Source: Candidatus Yanofskybacteria bacterium RIFCSPLOWO2_02_FULL_44_18
Lineage (GTDB): Bacteria; Patescibacteriota; Minisyncoccia; 2-02-FULL-40-12; GWA2-44-9
NCBI GenBank assembly: GCA_001794755.1
Contig: MGKT01000002.1
Coordinates: 1-63,129 of the forward strand
Reading direction: 5' to 3'
Length of the DNA stretch: 63,129 nucleotides
Shown here: piece after piece, positions 5,753 through 52,216 of the stretch
How positions within the stretch are numbered: position 1 is the stretch's first letter
Layout: the number at the start of each line of letters is the position of its first letter
Translations under genes and position numbers: made by a program
Notes under the pieces: generated by a model
Seen by the model: the letters and a program-made list of their open reading frames with translations, nothing else
The model's database searches: none
Told to the model about the DNA's origin: nothing

Positions 5753-5781
5753 TTGATAACACGGGAAGTTGATGTTATAAT
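5753..5781 (+). promoter_or_regulatory. Sigma70 promoter for the tRNA-Ile/tRNA-Ala pair
   Basis: TTGATA - 17 bp - TATAAT, 26 nt before tRNA-Ile. Confidence 0.8.
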
Positions 5782-5807: not shown

Positions 5808-5879
5808 GCGCGCGTAGTTCAGTGGTAGAACGCGTTCCTGATAAGAACGAGGCCCTTGGTCCGATTCCAAGCGCGCGCA
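5808..5879 (+). tRNA. tRNA-Ile(GAU)
   Basis: Cloverleaf: GCGCGCG/CGCGCGC acceptor, CGTTC-CT GAT AA-GAACG anticodon arm, CTTGG/CCAAG T-stem. Confidence 0.95.
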
Positions 5880-5886
5880 CATTCGC

Positions 5887-5959
5887 GGGCCGTTAGCTCA
5901 GTTGGTAGAGCGCCTCATTTGCAATGAGGAGGTCACCAGTTCAAGTCTGGTACGGTCCA
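5887..5959 (+). tRNA. tRNA-Ala(UGC)
   Basis: Cloverleaf with G3:U70, CCTCA-TT TGC AA-TGAGG anticodon arm, TTCAAGT T-loop. Confidence 0.97.
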
Positions 5960-5966
5960 CTATCGC

Positions 5967-43739: not shown

Positions 43740-45842
43740 ATGACAAACATTTTCAAGAATATATTTGGTCGAGAGTCAGGAACAAAGAAAATATTAATCC
43801 TGTCAGTTTTGGCGGGCGCTTTGGTTATCGGAGCGTCGTTTGCTTTGCAAATGACTTCTTCGAGCGCGTTTACGGATTGTCCTCCGCTTGAAGCAAGCAA
43901 TTGGAGATTCTTTCCGATGGCCTTTGCCATGCCCTGTCCCGATGAAGATGCAGGCGACTCCAGCGGTGGAGGCGGTGATGTGTCCTCAAATGGTGGCCAA
44001 TCCGGTCCCATTGAAACGGATTGCGGCATAGTCGAATCTGAAACAGGCCCGATATTAAATCGTTTTCCGATATCCAATTCAGGCGCGAACTGCACTGACT
44101 TTTCTCTCTTAGCCGCAAAGAATGTTTCTCGAGGCGGTGACTGGGTCAACGGCGGCCAAGTACAGGCTTCAGCAGGCGATACTATTAAATTTGATATTTA
44201 CGTCCATAACGGCGCCGTTGATAAAAATTTCAACGTGGCTCGAAATCTTAATATCAGAGTTTCACTGCCGAACGGATCTGGCACGGTTACGGCTCAAGCA
44301 TGGGCTGATAACGCTGGCGCGATTACGAGCGATGAGAAGGGCGGCAATGTTCAGTTGATGCTCGGCAACGGCGAAAGACTGGAAATAGTTTCCGGATCGG
44401 GAAAAATATACGACCGAGAATCCAATCTTCTTTCTTCTGATATTTCCGTAGAAAGCATTGTCGGCACCGGTTTGTCGCTTGGCGACATGCGCGGCTGTTT
44501 TGAATATGCAAGACAAGTAACATTTGAAGTTCGGGTTTTACCAGCGCAAGTGATACAGACGCCGACACCGACTCCCCAGCCATTATCAAACGGGGCAATC
44601 TGTGTAGATATTGCTGTTCCGTCCAATGTTACTGCTGGCCAGCAATTTTCAGCCGTTGTTAAAATGAGAAATACGGGTACGACCACGTGGACCAGCGGCG
44701 AGAGATATAAGCTGGGCTCGCAAAATCCGGAAAATAACACAATTTGGAGAGACGGACGAGTGGCCTTGCCACAATCAATCATGCCGGGCCAGGAAGCGGT
44801 ATTCAATTTTACGAATACGGCGCCAAATACGACCGGAGCCTATACTTTCAGCTGGAGAATGCTTCAGGAAGATCCAAACGGACAATGGTTCGGTTCGACA
44901 TGCTCCAGAACGATATTTGTAAATCCGGCGCCAACTCCTTTGGTAGTTTCTACCCCGACTCCGACTCCGACACCCACCCCTACTCCGACCCCAACCCCGA
45001 CGCCGACACCTTCGGTTACACCTACTCCAACACCTACGCCCACACCCACACCTACCCCAACCCCGACGCCTTCGGTTACTCCCACCCCGACCCCGACTCC
45101 GACACCGACAATTTCGTGTCCATCAGGATACCAGCAAACTATTCAAAACAATGTGATTGTGTGTATTGCTAATGTAAATAACAACAATAACACCAATACA
45201 AATAACAACACGAATAATAACAATCCGGTAATCAATATTACCTATCCGGTTTTGCATCCAACCCCAACACCCACTCCGACCCCCACACCGACCCCGGTTC
45301 CTCAAGTCGGTTTGGTAATTCAAAAATATGAAAGAAATATTTCGCAGGGCCAGAACGCGAATTACACGACTATATCCGCCCGCAACGGAGAGACAATCCA
45401 GTTCGATACCAGAGTTTGGAATAATTCCAACACGACGCTTTACAATGTCATTGTAACTGATCCGATTTCCGGATATCTCACATATGTAAATAACAGCACA
45501 AGCGTGAACGGCAATCAGGTTGGAAACGGCATCACGAGCGGCGGTATCAACATCGGCACATTGAATCCGGGACAAGAAACATGGATTAGATTCTTCGTGA
45601 CTGTGAATTCCTCAATCGTGACTCAAATCAACAATGTATCGCAAGCCAGAGCGGATAATCTTGGCACTGTAAATTCAAATCCGGTGTACATTAATTTGAA
45701 CGCCAATATCATTACCGGCGCCATAAGAATAAGAACCGGCGCTGTCGGCGGCATGACCATTCCATTCCTCGGTTCGCTCGCTTCGGCGGCCGGATACGCA
45801 TGGTTCTCGCGAAAGAAAATACTGCTGGATTTGATGGCTTAA
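43740..45842 (+). CDS. 700-aa cell-surface protein (NBR1-Ig-like and DUF11-like domains, PT repeats, sortase-type C-terminal signal)
   Basis: [11 protein letters not shown]...L...I.PG....F...AP...G.Y...WRM; (PT)n; Asn-rich stretch; IRTG + hydrophobic helix + RKK. Confidence 0.85.
44951..45110 (+). repeat. Pro-Thr coding tandem repeat (linker)
   Basis: Degenerate hexamer array encoding (TP)n with two SV interruptions; shorter copy near 45259-45298. Confidence 0.9.
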
Positions 45843-45907: not shown

Positions 45908-45937
45908 TTGACATGGTTCGGCCGCCTCTGATATACT
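45908..45937 (+). promoter_or_regulatory. Sigma70 promoter upstream of the 23S rRNA leader
   Basis: TTGACA - 18 bp - TATACT with TG extension. Confidence 0.7.
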
Positions 45938-47424
45938 ACCCTTACTAAATACATGAATACTTCAAGACAACTTCGACTCAAACGCGGCTAGGAACCATGG
46001 GGATTAGTATGCTCTGAAAAAGCCGCGCCAAACGCGGTTTTTCATTGTCTAGGGAATCTGTGATTGGCTTTCGGCGATAGGTTTGAAGACTCTTCGCGGA
46101 AAGCTAATGGATAGAATCTTGAAAATTAATGATAGCGGGTTAGTAAATCTTATAAAGTTGAACTTTATAAGGAATCATATAAGTATCATTCGTCTTTATG
46201 TTACTCATTAAAGAATTAAGGGCGTATGGAGGATGCCTTGACACGAAAGAGCGAAGAAGGTCGTGGCGTGACTGCGATAAGCTTCGGGGAGCCGTCTAGC
46301 GGGCTTTGATCCGGAGATGACCGAATGGGGGAACCCCATCGAGCAAACCTCGATGACCCGGCGCAAGCTGGGAGCGTACCTGGCGAAGTGAAACATCTCA
46401 GTAGCCAGAGGAAAAGAAATCAACAAGATTCCCTTAGTAGCGGCGAGCGAAAAGGGATAAGCCTAAACTTTTTTAACGCAAGTTAAAAAGGGGTAATAAG
46501 GATAGAACACTTGAATTTTTATCGTTGCGCTTTCGAAGGCAGCGGTAAAAATTTGAAAGAAGTTACAAATTCCAAAGTTAGCAGAACGGCCTTGGAACAG
46601 CCGGCCAAAGAAGGTGATAGCCCTGTAAGCGAAAACTTCTGGAACTTCTGTTTTATTGCGGCGCAAGCCGCCTTGCTTGAGTAGCCCGGGATAAGAATGT
46701 CCTGGGTGAATTTGCCCATACTACTGGGTAAGGCTAAATATCTTTCGTGATCGATAGTGAACCAGTACCGTGAGGGAAAGGTGAAAAGCACCCCGGTGAG
46801 GGGAGTGAAATAGCAACTGAAACCATATGCCTACAAAGAGCGGAAGTCCTTCGGCGGCAGCAATGCCGTCTGGGATGACCGTGTGCCTATTGAAGAATGA
46901 CCCAACGAGTTTATCCAAATTGCTCTATAAGTGCCTCTGGCACGTATGGAAAGGGAAACCGAGTGTTAAAAGCGCGTATTAGAACTAAATAAAATTTTCT
47001 TTAAAAAGAAAGTTTTAATAGTTCTAGAAGCAGTTTGGGTAAGACCCGAAGCCAGGCGAGCTAACCATGCCCAGGATGAAGGTTGTCGAAAGACAACTGG
47101 AGGTCCGAACTGGTTGGTAGCGCAATACCATCGGATGAGGTGTGGTTCGTAGTGAAAAGCTTATCGAGCCTGGTAATAGCTGGTTCTCCCCGAAATGCCT
47201 TTAGGGGCAGCGGCGGATTGTAGTTGAGGGGGTAGAGCACTGATTGGTTTGCCGTGCCCGCAAGGGTAGGCTTACCAAATAAACTCCGAATACCTCAGCG
47301 TAATTTCCGCCAGTGAGTAAGCGAGGGCAAAGCTTCGTTTACGCGAGGGAAACAGCCCAGATCATCAATTAAGGTCCCAAAATCTATGCTAAGTGAAAAG
47401 GAAGTATTCTGCCTTAGACAGGTA

Positions 47425-47553: not shown

Positions 47554-47710
47554 TTTGATGATTTCGAAAAGGATTTGTGGTGCCGTAGCTCAGTCAGAGC
47601 ACTGGGTCCCGGGCCCAGAGGTCGACGGTTCAAATCCGTCCGGCGCCACCAACCTGTCGGATTAAAATCAGGCGAGACCTGATAATCCGATCTTTTTCGA
47701 AATCATCAAG
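47554..47710 (+). other. Intervening sequence in 23S helix 45
   Basis: Replaces h45 between CCGAA..GGG and GGTAGGGGAGC; about 20-bp closing stem TTTGATGATTTCGAAAAGGA / TCTTTTTCGAAATCATCAAG. Confidence 0.85.
47579..47651 (+). ncRNA. tRNA-like cloverleaf with CCA end (nominal anticodon CCG) embedded in the 23S IVS
   Basis: GGTGCCG/CGGCGCC acceptor + ACCA; GCTC/GAGC D-stem; CTGGG/CCCAG anticodon stem; GACGG-TTCAAAT-CCGTC T-arm; lacks G18G19 and U33. Confidence 0.85.
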
Positions 47711-49919: not shown

Positions 49920-50045
49920 AACAGGCTGGTACCGCCCGAGCGTCCTTAGCGACGGCGGTGTTCGGCACCTCGATGTCGGCTCGGCTTATCCTGGGACTGA
50001 AGAAGGCCCCAAGGGTTTGGCTGTTCGCCAATTAAAAAGCTACGC

Positions 50046-50977
50046 GAGAAATCACGTGTCCAAGTAGTAATATTTGGAGCGAGCCAAATATATTTCTTTA
50101 TGTTAAAATTAAAGAAATATATACTCTAGCTTATATCGGTAGAACCCATGAAAATTAACCCCTTTCACGGGCAGTACCGAGGGAAGATTAGCTAGGAATT
50201 AATGCTTACGAGAGAAGAAAAGAATATTTTAGTCGGTTCACTTCTCGGAGATGGATGTTTAAGAATAATGCAGAAATGCAAAGTTCCAGCATTCTCAGTT
50301 TCTCATAGTGAAGTTCAGAAAGACTACGTTTTTTGGAAGTATGAGAAATTAAAACGGTGGGTTAAAAATCCGCCGTGGCGAGAAGAGAGAATCTACCACA
50401 AAGATAAAAGTAGAAAAACTTTTTCTTGGAGATTTCAAACTTTAAGCAATGAAGTATTTTCTGATTTGTATCAAACTTTCTATGAAAATGGAAAGAAAAT
50501 TATACCGGAAAATATAGAATTTCTGCTTAAAGATTCACCATTGATATTGGCTGTATGGCTAATGGACGATGGGAATAAAAATCATCAAGCGGTTTTTCTT
50601 AACACCCAATCATTCTCTCTGAGTGAGCAACAGAAGCTATGCCAGGTGTTGCATAAAATCTATGGATTTGATGCGAATATAAACAAACATAGTAAAAGCA
50701 ATGGAGTAGAACTGTATAGAATTAGAATAAATACCGAGAGCACACGAAAATTAAAAACCGTTGTGAAGAATTATTTATTACCACTGTTTTACTATAAAAT
50801 TCCTGACTTTTCCCCGTAACGACTTGTGAGTTTAGCTCACAGATAGTAAGTGAGGAGACTCCTTCGACTGAAGGAATCAAAGGCTTACTATAAAACGCTG
50901 GTACCCGAACCGAGCTTAGCTCGGAGGGTAGAGATATAGTCTGTGCCCCTAGTGATAGGGGAAGAATAAAAAACACG
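50046..50977 (+). mobile_element. Group I intron 2 at about position 2575 with homing endonuclease gene (junction ambiguous by up to 3 nt)
   Basis: Splits CTACGC/GAGCTGGG; R (CCGTAACGACT) and S (GAGATATAGTCT) elements. Confidence 0.9.
50202..50819 (+). CDS. LAGLIDADG homing endonuclease (intron 2)
   Basis: LVGSLLGDGCL and LAVWLMDDG motifs. Confidence 0.93.
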   Translation: MLTREEKNILVGSLLGDGCLRIMQKCKVPAFSVSHSEVQKDYVFWKYEKLKRWVKNPPWREERIYHKDKSRKTFSWRFQTLSNEVFSDLYQTFYENGKKIIPENIEFLLKDSPLILAVWLMDDGNKNHQAVFLNTQSFSLSEQQKLCQVLHKIYGFDANINKHSKSNGVELYRIRINTESTRKLKTVVKNYLLPLFYYKIPDFSP

Positions 50978-51206
50978 GAGCTGGGTTCAAACCGTCGTGA
51001 GACAGGTTGGTCCATATCTGGTGCGGGCGTTGATACTTGAGAGGAGTTGTCCCTAGTAAATAATTGCTACTTCGCGAAGTAATTCGCGATGACAATTCGG
51101 CTAATAACGGTGGATGCTCTTGTTTGCCATGCAATTCGGTCCGAAAAGCATGAATTAAAACTGCCAAGAGTTAATACCGTGGGAAGTCACCCGCTCAAAT
51201 TTTTGG

Positions 51207-51234
51207 AAAAAAAATGGCACAACCGAAGTTGTGC
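51207..51234 (-). terminator. Antisense-strand intrinsic terminator inside intron 3
   Basis: Minus strand reads GCACAAC-TTCG-GTTGTGC-CA-T8. Confidence 0.8.
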
Positions 51235-51257
51235 ATAGAACTGATGTTGGGTTTAAC

Positions 51258-51509
51258 TTAATAGTAATGAGCGGTATCGGCAGTAGGTTCAACAAATGCT
51301 TTGTACAAGTATGTTCCATCCACACGACCTACCTCATCTCGTATTTCGCCTTGGAGTGTGAAATCTCCAGAGAGACGATAGTTTCGGCCCTTGAACGGAC
51401 CGTACTTCATGGATACGACCCGACCATGTAAGGGGACCGTATCGAGGCAAATCTGTCCGACATAACAGAGGGGTTCTCGAGTGTACAGATAGATTATAGC
51501 AGTTATCAT
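51258..51509 (-). CDS. 83-aa orphan protein encoded antisense within intron 3
   Basis: SD GGGGAGG 5 nt before ATG; consensus promoter upstream; terminator downstream. Confidence 0.65.
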   Translation of the reverse strand: MITAIIYLYTREPLCYVGQICLDTVPLHGRVVSMKYGPFKGRNYRLSGDFTLQGEIRDEVGRVDGTYLYKAFVEPTADTAHYY

Positions 51510-51539
51510 GATTGCCTCCCCTGAGATACCAACTTAAAA

Positions 51540-51568
51540 AGCATAACGATTTATTTTATAAATGTCAA
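51540..51568 (-). promoter_or_regulatory. Antisense sigma70 promoter inside intron 3
   Basis: TTGACA - 17 bp - TATGCT on the minus strand. Confidence 0.7.
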
Positions 51569-52075
51569 GATTAAACTTGACTCCAAAAATTTGAGCGTGG
51601 TTGACCCCGTAACGACTTGGCCCATCATTTATTGATGGCCGGATGGAAATCTTTTCAGCTTCCATAATATGCCGATCCCCGATTCGCCTTTTGCTGGGCT
51701 TGCTATGAGCGAGCATAGCGAGTCGAAGGGGAAAGATATAGTCTGCACTTCTAGTGATAGGAGATTATGTGACGAGAGGACCGGGATGAACGAACCTCTG
51801 GTCTACGAGCTGTCCTGCCAAGGGCATTGCTCGGTAGCTATGTTCGGTTCTGATAAGCGCTGAAAGCATATAAGCGCGAAGCAGGCCTCAAGATTAGGTA
51901 TCGTAGATCCGCAGTAGACTACTGCGTTAATAGGACTCAGGTGTAAGCACAGTAATGTGTTGAGCCGAGAGCCACTAATAGATCATCTTTAATGAGTCCA
52001 TAGAGACTGAATGCTTATTTTGATTCCTTATAAAGTTTAATTTCGAGTGCGATTGCGTTCGCCGTCGCGGTGAGC

Positions 52076-52216
52076 GTAGGGTAGCTATACTGAGAGTGCT
52101 CCACCTGATCCCATTCCGAACTCAGAAGTGAAATCTCTCGAGGCCCATGATACCCAGCACCATTTTCACAATCAGATTGCGGAAATGGTGCTGGGGAAAG
52201 TAGGTAGCTGCCTTAC
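52076..52216 (+). rRNA. rrf: 5S rRNA with extended helix IV
   Basis: CCACCTGATCCCATTCCGAACTCAGAAGTGAAA core; terminal helix GTAGGGTAGCT/AGCTGCCTTAC; 141 nt. Confidence 0.92.

Follow-up and report, generated by a model that had tools for sequence, protein, structure and literature searches.

A predicted antisense transcription unit in a group I intron of the 23S rRNA gene

We analyzed a stretch of 63,129 nucleotides (nt) of contig MGKT01000002.1, here called the window, from Candidatus Yanofskybacteria bacterium RIFCSPLOWO2_02_FULL_44_18, an uncultured groundwater bacterium of the Patescibacteria (the candidate phyla radiation [CPR]). The window contains a bacterial 23S rRNA gene that starts at position 46207 and a 5S rRNA gene at 52077 to 52216, both called by Rfam. 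Mapping against the Escherichia coli rrlB gene placed 23S exons at window positions up to 49013 (E. coli positions up to 2451), 49920 to 50048 (2450 to 2578), 50978 to 51058 (2576 to 2657), and 51772 to at least 51897 (2657 to at least 2782), and three insertions therefore split the 3' third of the gene. The third of them, intron 3 (51059 to 51771, plus strand), lies between E. coli U2656 and A2657 in the sarcin-ricin loop (SRL), an insertion point known in the literature as site 2657 or 23IS14 (PMC11270868). Our subject is a predicted transcription unit that occupies a peripheral loop of intron 3 and reads antisense to the rRNA.

The unit fits exactly into the space enclosed by a perfect inverted repeat (51192 to 51207 and 51582 to 51597; 16 of 16 positions complementary, 374 nt apart). 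On the minus strand, a predicted sigma-70-type promoter, TTGACA-17-TATGCT, follows one arm (-35 box at 51568 to 51563, -10 box at 51545 to 51540; 10 of 12 matches), with its -35 box inside the palindrome GTCAAG-N6-CTTGAC (51564 to 51581). The promoter is followed by a Shine-Dalgarno (SD) sequence, GGGGAGG (51521 to 51515), located 5 nt before an ATG at 51509, and by an open reading frame (ORF) of 83 amino acids (aa) that begins with MITAIIYLYTREPL and ends with TADTAHYY (51509 to 51258). A predicted intrinsic terminator (51234 to 51207) closes the unit; it consists of the hairpin GCACAAC-UUCG-GUUGUGC (51234 to 51217), CA, and a U8 tract (51214 to 51207) that ends at the base of the other arm, and minimum-energy folding of the antisense RNA yields this hairpin. 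Five sites in the window reach at least 11 of 12 promoter matches, and all of them are upstream of genes or RNA genes (one of them at 45908); judging from these sites the host appears to use sigma-70-like promoters. At the sequence level, the ordered promoter, ribosome binding site, ORF, and terminator nested in a host element make up a unit of the “moron” type. The initial annotation had described a complete antisense transcription unit in an intron loop that normally holds a homing endonuclease gene (HEG); we found every element of it at the positions given, and the layout recurs in 30 cassettes (see below).

The sequence of intron 3 bears the hallmarks of a group I intron. The 5' exon ends in CCCTAGT, and in P1 the sequence UAGU/AA (slash, 5' splice site) pairs with UUGCUA, so that a U.G pair closes P1 at the splice site, as in group I introns. 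The intron ends in ATTATGTG, with a terminal G (AUGUG) followed by the exon sequence ACGAGAGGACC, as at the 3' end of group I introns. Both the R and the S elements of the catalytic core are present, namely J6/7-P7 (R element; CCCCGTAACGACTT, 51606 to 51619, plus strand), which is common to the three introns of the window and corresponds to the R region of the Rfam family RF00028 in a homologue (L077), and J8/7-P7' (S element; AAGATATAGTCT, 51733 to 51744, plus strand), identified from the window's intron family and the RF00028 alignment. All three insertions share the S element (A/G)AGATATAGTCT and the string (TTGA/TTTT)CCCCGTAACGACTTG directly 3' of the long insert, and TTGACCCCGTAACGACTTG starts right at the 3' end of the insert in introns 1, 2, and 3. 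At the place equivalent to the antisense unit, introns 1 and 2 encode LAGLIDADG_2 ORFs (E = 7e-38 and 1.9e-41), in agreement with the LAGLIDADG ORFs noted there initially.

Rfam calls none of these introns at its gathering threshold, and intron 3 of the window goes unscored because its 406-nt insert breaks the alignment. An ORF-less copy was needed for a match, which was made in E-value mode instead of at the gathering threshold: all 253 positions of RF00028 aligned to the ORF-less homologue L077 (41.1 bits, E = 2.8e-9, below the gathering score of 50). The 5' core of intron 3 is 78% identical to that of L077 and 90% identical to that of L067, a Yanofskybacteria locus. The alignment of L077 to RF00028 identifies the variable insert as the P6 terminal loop, immediately 5' of J6/7-P7, which confirms the earlier placement of the loop just before the R element, and, like the introns of subgroup IA, it has additional hairpins (P7.1/P7.2) beyond P7. 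By these signatures, intron 3 is a predicted group I intron with P7.1/P7.2-type hairpins at 23S position 2656/2657. The 5' strand of its extended P6 (51186 to 51207, plus strand) comprises GTCACC (51186 to 51191) and the arm CGCTCAAATTTTTGGA; the 3' strand (51582 to 51605, plus strand) comprises the arm TCCAAAAATTTGAGCG and TGGTTGAC (GGTTGAC, 51599 to 51605), with the R element directly after it.

Contents of the P6 loop at the sarcin-ricin site

The SRL-site intron is widespread: a scan of GTDB genomes with the pattern GATATAGTC-N(15-45)-ACGAGAGGACCGG returned at least 119 contigs, and among the matches listed nearly all were from Patescibacteria. The nearest relatives of intron 3 among these matches came from metagenome-assembled genomes of Yanofskybacteria, Saccharibacteria, and other Parcubacteria. 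The P6 insert could be delimited in 117 of the listed contigs; it was at most 60 nt long in 24 of the 117 and at least 440 nt long in 84, most of the latter being 453 to 531 nt. Most long inserts contain a sense ORF (131 to 155 aa within the insert, about 157 to 159 aa in full) that belongs to LAGLIDADG_1 (E = 8.6e-10), in agreement with the LAGLIDADG_1 introns described by Tsurumaki et al. in 2024 for 23S site 2657 of CPR bacteria (PMC11270868). A few P6 inserts hold truncated HEGs (L035, L036, L083, L028, L010, and L062). Antisense ORFs of 60 to 105 aa are common opposite HEGs, so an antisense ORF of 83 codons is by itself unremarkable.

Two further inserts were of other kinds. The P6 loop of one SRL-site intron (L057, JBBTUG010000002.1) contains a sense 23S_rRNA_IVP gene (PF05635, E = 1.8e-20) between inverted repeats that are long but imperfect; it represents a third type of cargo in the P6 loop at this site. 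In Andersenbacteria (L051, MHHQ01000005.1), the loop is filled by 213 nt of ORF-free sequence composed of short repeats, which read AATGACC.. on one side and as the complement, TTGGGAT.., on the other, together with several GC hairpins.

A family of antisense cassettes in Patescibacteria rRNA operons

Two GTDB loci have no sense ORF and carry an antisense unit instead. The unit in L067 encodes a 79-aa membrane protein, and that in L110 consists of TTGACT-17-TATAAT, AAGGAG, an 82-aa ORF, and a terminator. The L110 unit can be aligned with that of the window at its ends only, that is, at the arms, the GTCAA..TTGAC hairpin with the -35 box, and the terminator base with its T tract. We then scanned metagenomes for the arm together with the R element (TCCAAAAAT-N(5-25)-GACCCCGTAACGAC) and recovered 29 loci with 23 distinct inserts, nearly all having the same antisense layout. 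An arm (..[AT]ATTTTTGGA) is followed by a TTGACA -35 box, often in a covarying hairpin, a spacer of 16 to 18 nt, and a -10 box; then come GGAGG or AGGAG 5 to 9 nt before an ATG, a small ORF, and a terminator, whose GC-rich hairpin and T run abut TCCAAAAAT. In most family members, the -35 box adjoins the arm at the same position as in the window, and in 19 of 22 members a terminator lies directly against the other arm.

A search for the arm pair in all fetched loci yielded 30 distinct cassettes with the common arms ..AAATTTTTGGA and TCCAAAAATTT.., and the P6 arms covary across the family (GCACATATTTTTGGAG/CTCCAAAAATATGTGC in L110, CCGTTCAAATTTTTGGA/TCCAAAAATTTGAACGG in L130). A promoter with at least 10 of 12 matches was found in 22 of the 30, and an SD-led ORF of 30 aa or more was found in 29 (range, 31 to 109 aa; median, 60 aa). 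Transmembrane (TM) segments are predicted in 17 of these 29 ORFs, and the other 12 are soluble. All 30 cassettes, each oriented by its own signals, are antisense to the flanking intron or rRNA. Alternative cargo in homologous introns, a point that the initial annotation had left to be checked, includes cassettes of the same frame in addition to sense HEGs and one IVP gene.

The cassettes are found in SRL-site introns, in introns at other 23S sites (e.g., near E. coli position 2500), and in the 23S-5S spacer; some of the introns that bear them have the R element GACCCCGTAGAGAC or GACCCCTCAACGAC. The spacer copies have the same arms and are outside introns (positions 1789 to 2107 of L077, 6074 to 6446 of L137 [L137/L151], and approximately 3374 to 3660 of L144). 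Those of L077 and L137/L151 read as antisense promoter-SD-ORF-terminator units, and the L144 spacer copy was not oriented by our filter. Some rRNA operons have two or three cassettes, with different interiors. Since the same arms and layout are present in the 23S-5S spacer, the unit is best described as an inverted-repeat-flanked module of rRNA operons and not as part of the intron as such. The initial annotation had regarded the intron as a vehicle for a cargo gene; a cargo cassette is indeed in the loop, but the carrier is not the intron as such. We conclude that these loci represent a putative family of inverted-repeat-flanked, self-contained antisense small-protein cassettes in Patescibacteria rRNA operons.

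Near-identical arms (TTCCGTTCAAATTTTTGGA) recur in different introns and in a spacer, as terminal inverted repeats would in a miniature inverted-repeat transposable element (MITE). In a MITE-like reading, the arms would act as terminal repeats that travel with the module, with no transposase and with interiors that differ between copies. No direct repeats or target site duplication was found flanking the window arms, no second copy of the cassette was found within the 63-kb window, and the arm-plus-R pattern had no match in viral contigs. Such a reading is compatible with a self-contained cassette and not opposed to it.

To evaluate the composite signature, we used a strict detector that required, in order, a promoter matching in 10 or more of 12 positions, an SD-led ORF of 35 aa or longer whose start is 10 to 130 nt downstream, and a terminator between -25 and +70 nt of the stop codon. 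The signature was present on 12 of 22 cassette antisense strands, on 0 of 22 cassette sense strands, in 0 of 84 HEG inserts (either strand), and in 0 of 1,100 shuffled cassettes, and by chance standards it is remarkable to find promoter, SD-led ORF, and terminator combined in this order. Taken singly, the elements were also more frequent on cassette antisense strands than on HEG antisense strands (promoter, 16/22 versus 5/84; SD-led ORF of at least 35 aa, 20/22 versus 10/84; terminator, 19/22 versus 34/84). Terminator-like sites occurred on only 1 of 22 cassette sense strands, a near-absence that is expected if selection acts against them within an rRNA gene. The SD-led ORF ends between -19 and +39 nt from the terminator stem in 17 of 19 cassettes. 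The chance of such an open frame is 0.0025 to 0.18 per cassette, and the summed log10 P value over the 19 is -26, with the longest SD-led ORF chosen each time. At the level of sequence, the ORFs are maintained.

Replacement of cassette interiors

We compared interiors by local-alignment z-scores. The introns of L136 and L141 have cores that are 93 to 95% identical on both sides through the arms (5' core, z = 121), whereas their interiors are unrelated (z = 1.7); homology ends at an A run after one arm and resumes at the -35 box. Every close pair tested had unrelated interiors, including the window versus L155, L141, and L143 (z = 0.1 to 0.4), and blastn found no match to the window cassette in 119 related loci or elsewhere in the window. 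The interior is replaced wholesale between introns that are otherwise near-identical.

All-against-all BLASTP of the ORFs recovered a single homologous pair, in L130 (64 aa) and L155c (49 aa), which are in different introns. These two ORFs have 37.5% identity (E = 8e-10), in-frame indels, and an uncorrected ratio of nonsynonymous to synonymous differences (pN/pS) of 0.53; their conserved C terminus overlaps the terminator hairpin in part. One metagenomic contig (L146; ERZ1292629 contig 24940) has an empty site, TCGCCCG/TCCAAAAATTTGAGCGGGTTGAC (slash, junction), with a single arm copy as its P6 loop. Compared with the filled sites of L137 and L144, exactly the other arm and the interior are missing, and there are no flanking direct repeats, which suggests loss or gain of the cassette without such repeats.

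The 83-aa protein

The 83-aa ORF had no match in Pfam or NCBIfam at an E value of ≤10. Searches for homologues returned only the protein itself among 5.8 billion clusters and, among 1.84 billion representatives, itself and one 867-aa tandem-repeat protein (E = 6.8e-15), which we rejected as spurious because the match is the sum of 11 weak repeat matches with 31% identity over 39 aa. Searches with the L110 and L143 ORFs also returned nothing but the query itself. The exact 83-aa protein is present on 46 to 49 groundwater metagenome contigs, including some from the Rifle project PRJNA268031.

The ORF is not hydrophobic (grand average of hydropathy [GRAVY], -0.14); no 19-residue window has a hydropathy of ≥1.6, and no TM segment is predicted. 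The chance of a frame staying open for this length is 0.0125. Its codon log-odds score, trained on 21 genes of the window, is 0.115 per codon, the best of the six frames, at the 18th percentile of 83-codon chunks of real genes, and comparable to the scores of the window's HEGs (0.155 and 0.088). Differences among contigs of the population are mainly in the region of introns 1 and 2. With no homologues, a modest codon score, and no variants, the case for this ORF therefore rests mainly on the family.

Proposed expression of the cassette and alternative explanations

We consider it probable that the unit is a self-contained antisense small-protein cassette whose expression is opposed by rRNA transcription and which serves as selfish or accessory cargo, the function being the least certain step of this model. 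In the precursor rRNA (pre-rRNA), the arms would pair and extend P6, so that the ribozyme core could fold and splice whatever the loop contains. RNA polymerase would start at the cassette promoter, run against rRNA transcription, and halt at the hairpin and U8 tract before reaching the P4-P6 core or an exon, yielding an mRNA of about 330 nt that would be translated into a soluble 83-aa protein without known relatives. Only the antisense orientation would be tolerated, because a terminator in the sense orientation would abort 23S synthesis. The initial annotation was right about the orientation, which it had explained as a means of avoiding expression from the rRNA transcript; terminator avoidance is the simplest reason for it instead. 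Because the mRNA would be perfectly complementary over its full length to the abundant pre-rRNA or excised intron, expression is expected to be low during high rRNA synthesis. Head-on interference and cleavage of the duplex by RNase III could bring about this repression, and expression would rise as rRNA synthesis falls.

Several observations weigh against this explanation. The strict detector failed in 10 of the 22 cassettes, although the feature calls attribute these failures mostly to subthreshold promoters or terminators and not to missing parts, and the window's own promoter has 10 of 12 matches with an imperfect -10 box. As for the protein, 11% of spurious ORFs exceed the codon score of the 83-aa ORF, eight contigs that are 100% identical over intron 3 offer no sequence variants of it, and it is without homologues. 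The initial annotation had held that a lack of protein homologues would speak against a real gene. Literally that lack is what we found, yet it is typical of the whole cassette family, and in this light we do not take it as evidence against the unit. A single-sequence AlphaFold model was all-beta with low confidence (predicted local distance difference test [pLDDT] score, 56.7), and a Foldseek search of the PDB with this low-confidence model gave no fold match (best E = 0.94). Finally, the coupling of cassette expression to rRNA transcription is a proposal whose basis is purely geometric.

A more specific version of the cassette explanation holds that the unit is an addiction or dormancy module resembling toxin-antitoxin (TA) systems of type I, in which the small protein is toxic and the pre-rRNA or excised intron is its antisense antitoxin; as a subhypothesis, it is possible that such a module stabilizes an intron without a HEG or arrests growth when rRNA synthesis stops. 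The family's small membrane peptides suggest toxin-like, selfish, or stress-linked roles, and the 17 of 29 ORFs with predicted TM segments encode peptides of 34 to 79 aa, typical of type I toxins. A highly expressed sense transcript covers the whole mRNA, the cassette sits at the HEG position, and the extreme sequence diversity fits a role that needs toxicity alone. There is also a precedent in Helicobacter pylori for RNase III cleavage of a duplex between an antisense RNA and an rRNA precursor (PMC6582327). However, the window ORF is not a small hydrophobic protein of this kind, the 12 soluble ORFs among the 29 do not conform either, known toxin families were not matched in Pfam or NCBIfam, and terminator avoidance already explains the antisense orientation. 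We regard this version as tentative and somewhat unlikely.

Less likely still is a function of the RNA only, with an antisense transcript that pairs with the P6 loop and directs RNase III processing or intron turnover while the ORFs are incidental. The ORF bodies are unrelated, the three tested had no homologues, conservation is limited to the frame of arms, promoter, and terminator, and the H. pylori antisense RNA is again a precedent (PMC6582327). This explanation does not account for the well-spaced, strong SD motifs, for the 17 of 19 cassettes whose ORF fills the unit, or for the excess of SD-led ORFs over the HEG controls (20/22 versus 10/84). Moreover, the L130/L155c pair is conserved at the protein level with in-frame indels, and the interior of the window cassette is not unusually structured on either strand compared with shuffled sequences (z = -1.44 and -1.38).

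It is very unlikely that the loop is the wreck of a LAGLIDADG gene in which the antisense features arose by chance in AT-rich junk. The homing cycle predicts HEG decay, truncated HEGs do exist at the SRL site (L035, L036, and L083), and ORFs of 60 to 105 aa are common opposite HEGs. Nevertheless, a profile built from 80 SRL-site proteins found all degenerate controls (E ≤ 1e-29) and no cassette frame (best E = 0.56), the window cassette being absent from its match list in all six frames, and tblastn with the 2 HEGs of the window and 41 other intron HEGs was negative. Cassette GC content is 42 to 46%, versus 33 to 34% in the window's two HEGs, and the composite signature occurred in none of the 84 HEG inserts. 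Neither PF00961, PF03161, PF14528, nor a LAGLIDADG motif was found in the window cassette (Pfam at E ≤ 10, tblastn, and the site profile), and the 83-aa ORF matched none of the GIY-YIG, HNH, His-Cys box, PD-(D/E)xK, or EDxHD homing endonuclease families (Pfam and NCBIfam at E ≤ 10). Thus, the absence of an endonuclease motif reported initially holds, and a degraded homing endonuclease is refuted within the sensitivity of the profile. The ORF also had no match to PF05635, for which the IVP gene of L057 served as a positive control (E = 1.8e-20). Separately, a 20-nt match of 85% between the HEG of intron 2 and the cassette in inverted orientation, considered as an inverted HEG remnant, was attributed to chance because tblastn and the profile hidden Markov model were negative.

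Equally improbable is a 374-nt peripheral extension of the ribozyme without a gene, for although the closing stem is long and perfect and the inner GTCAAG/CTTGAC hairpin covaries among the family, the interior has an ordinary fold energy (z = -1.44) and is not conserved between near-identical introns, and it is on the antisense strand that the UUCG tetraloop with its U tract, the SD sequence, and the ORF can be read.

Organization of the rRNA genes in the host

A sense tRNA-Arg(CCG) gene (47579 to 47651, plus strand; Rfam, 57.7 bits; also called by ARAGORN) is inside the 23S gene, in the gap that separates E. coli positions 1111 and 1186, the helix-45 site of intervening sequences (IVSs), which suggests that the 23S rRNA is fragmented around an embedded tRNA. 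The 5S rRNA is 140 nt long and has an insertion of about 35 nt, versus 12 nt in the Rfam model. The 23S-5S unit has its own near-consensus promoter, TTGACA-18-TATACT (45908 to 45937), about 300 nt before the 23S gene. The genes for tRNA-Ile and tRNA-Ala, usually located in the 16S-23S spacer, are 40 kb from the 23S gene (5808 to 5960), behind TTGATA-17-TATAAT (5753 to 5781), and no 16S gene was detected within the window. Given these three features, the rRNA genes appear to be unlinked in this host.

Just 5' of the 23S promoter, a predicted 700-aa protein (43740 to 45842, plus strand) has long Pro-Thr repeats and an Asn-rich tract; in other contigs of the population, it is 673 aa long, indicating a variable repeat length. 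Two contigs of the same population (L006 and L007) have 88 to 90 differences from the window, all of them in the region of intron 2 and its LAGLIDADG_2 gene (50034 to 51058), and are identical to the window across the following 6.4 kb. Intron 2 could be polymorphic or have been replaced, or the assemblies could be mixed at the contig ends.

Comparison with known systems

The classic example of a group I intron with a LAGLIDADG gene in a peripheral loop is Cr.LSU with I-CreI. The window intron shares with LAGLIDADG group I introns the family, the rRNA site, the P6 loop, and the closing stem around the insert but differs in its cargo, which is not an endonuclease, lies on the other strand, and comes with a promoter and terminator of its own. 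A survey of rRNA insertions in CPR bacteria, the most thorough of its kind, annotated Pfam-matching ORFs only and counted 222 “ORF-less” 23S group I introns (PMC11270868); cassette introns were therefore presumably counted as ORF-less, and cassette-type introns are likely to be among these 222. The words “antisense” and “promoter” do not occur in the text of that survey (PMC11270868).

Antisense HEGs of the His-Cys box family are present in nuclear ribosomal DNA (rDNA) group I introns, for example, at site L2066 (PMC9548176). Like these, the cassette is an antisense protein gene in an rDNA group I intron that is predicted to be expressed apart from the rRNA transcript. However, the nuclear genes are eukaryotic, encode endonucleases, and have RNA polymerase II-type signals and spliceosomal introns, whereas the cassettes are bacterial, have sigma-70, SD, and intrinsic terminator signals, and carry diverse nonendonuclease cargo. 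In H. pylori, pairing of a cis-antisense RNA with the 23S-5S precursor results in cleavage by RNase III and fast decay of the antisense RNA (PMC6582327). Here too a promoter within the rRNA operon points against rRNA transcription, but the H. pylori RNA is noncoding and lies in a leader, whereas the cassette transcript would carry an SD-led ORF and lie in an intron loop.

Another comparison is with the IVSs of 23S rRNA and the associated 23S_rRNA_IVP/S23p proteins (PF05635), for example, in Coxiella (PMC4990558). IVSs are likewise inserts closed by inverted repeats at the tips of rRNA stem-loops, with a possible small ORF, and the cassettes likewise occur outside introns. In contrast to the cassettes, the IVP gene of L057 is in the sense orientation. 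IVP genes are generally sense and lack a promoter and terminator of their own. Type I TA systems such as hok/sok, tisB/istR, and zorO/orzO (PMC3919570) also have a small, often hydrophobic peptide gene that is fully overlapped by an abundant complementary RNA. Unlike in these systems, there is no dedicated gene for an antitoxin small RNA, whose part would fall to the rRNA precursor, and the window protein lacks a hydrophobic character.

Phage morons are autonomous promoter-ORF-terminator units within a larger element, and integron cassettes have conserved ends and interchangeable small ORFs, mostly without relatives. The antisense cassettes resemble the former in their autonomy and the latter in their fixed ends and swappable small ORFs. 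They differ from both in that there is no prophage, integrase, or attC site and in that their ends form an RNA stem belonging to an rRNA intron or spacer.

Antisense ORFs were not mentioned in a review of bacterial group I introns, and in the literature searched antisense HEGs were reported solely from eukaryotic nuclear introns (PMC9548176). The same literature contained no paper linking group I introns with type I TA systems and nothing comparable on IVSs with antisense promoters. Within the literature searched, the cassette family therefore appears to be undescribed.

Implications

Bacterial group I introns are thought, to our knowledge, to carry a HEG, the remains of a HEG, or nothing. The cassettes described here add a new kind of cargo for self-splicing introns, in that introns presumably regarded as “empty,” and rRNA spacers as well, contain a conserved frame for antisense expression whose small genes are interchangeable. 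This may represent a possible route for intron persistence after endonuclease loss. Antisense protein genes in the most transcribed operon of the cell would also provide a test bed for head-on interference and for antisense regulation derived from rRNA. For genome annotation, the cassette ORFs are a concern, as gene callers skip them or call them without their context, and together they define a set of lineage-specific small proteins in poorly understood organisms.

We speculate, with considerable doubt, that the cassettes are an unrecognized class with swappable interiors, in which each cassette expresses its own small protein with no known relative, in most cases a membrane peptide, off the strand opposite to the rRNA, and for which the rRNA precursor or excised intron acts as antitoxin or regulator. 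If this is true, TA-like cassettes would replace the HEG as a means of intron persistence or would couple a growth arrest factor to the shutoff of rRNA synthesis, and the cassettes would be places where small proteins turn over rapidly or arise de novo in Patescibacteria.

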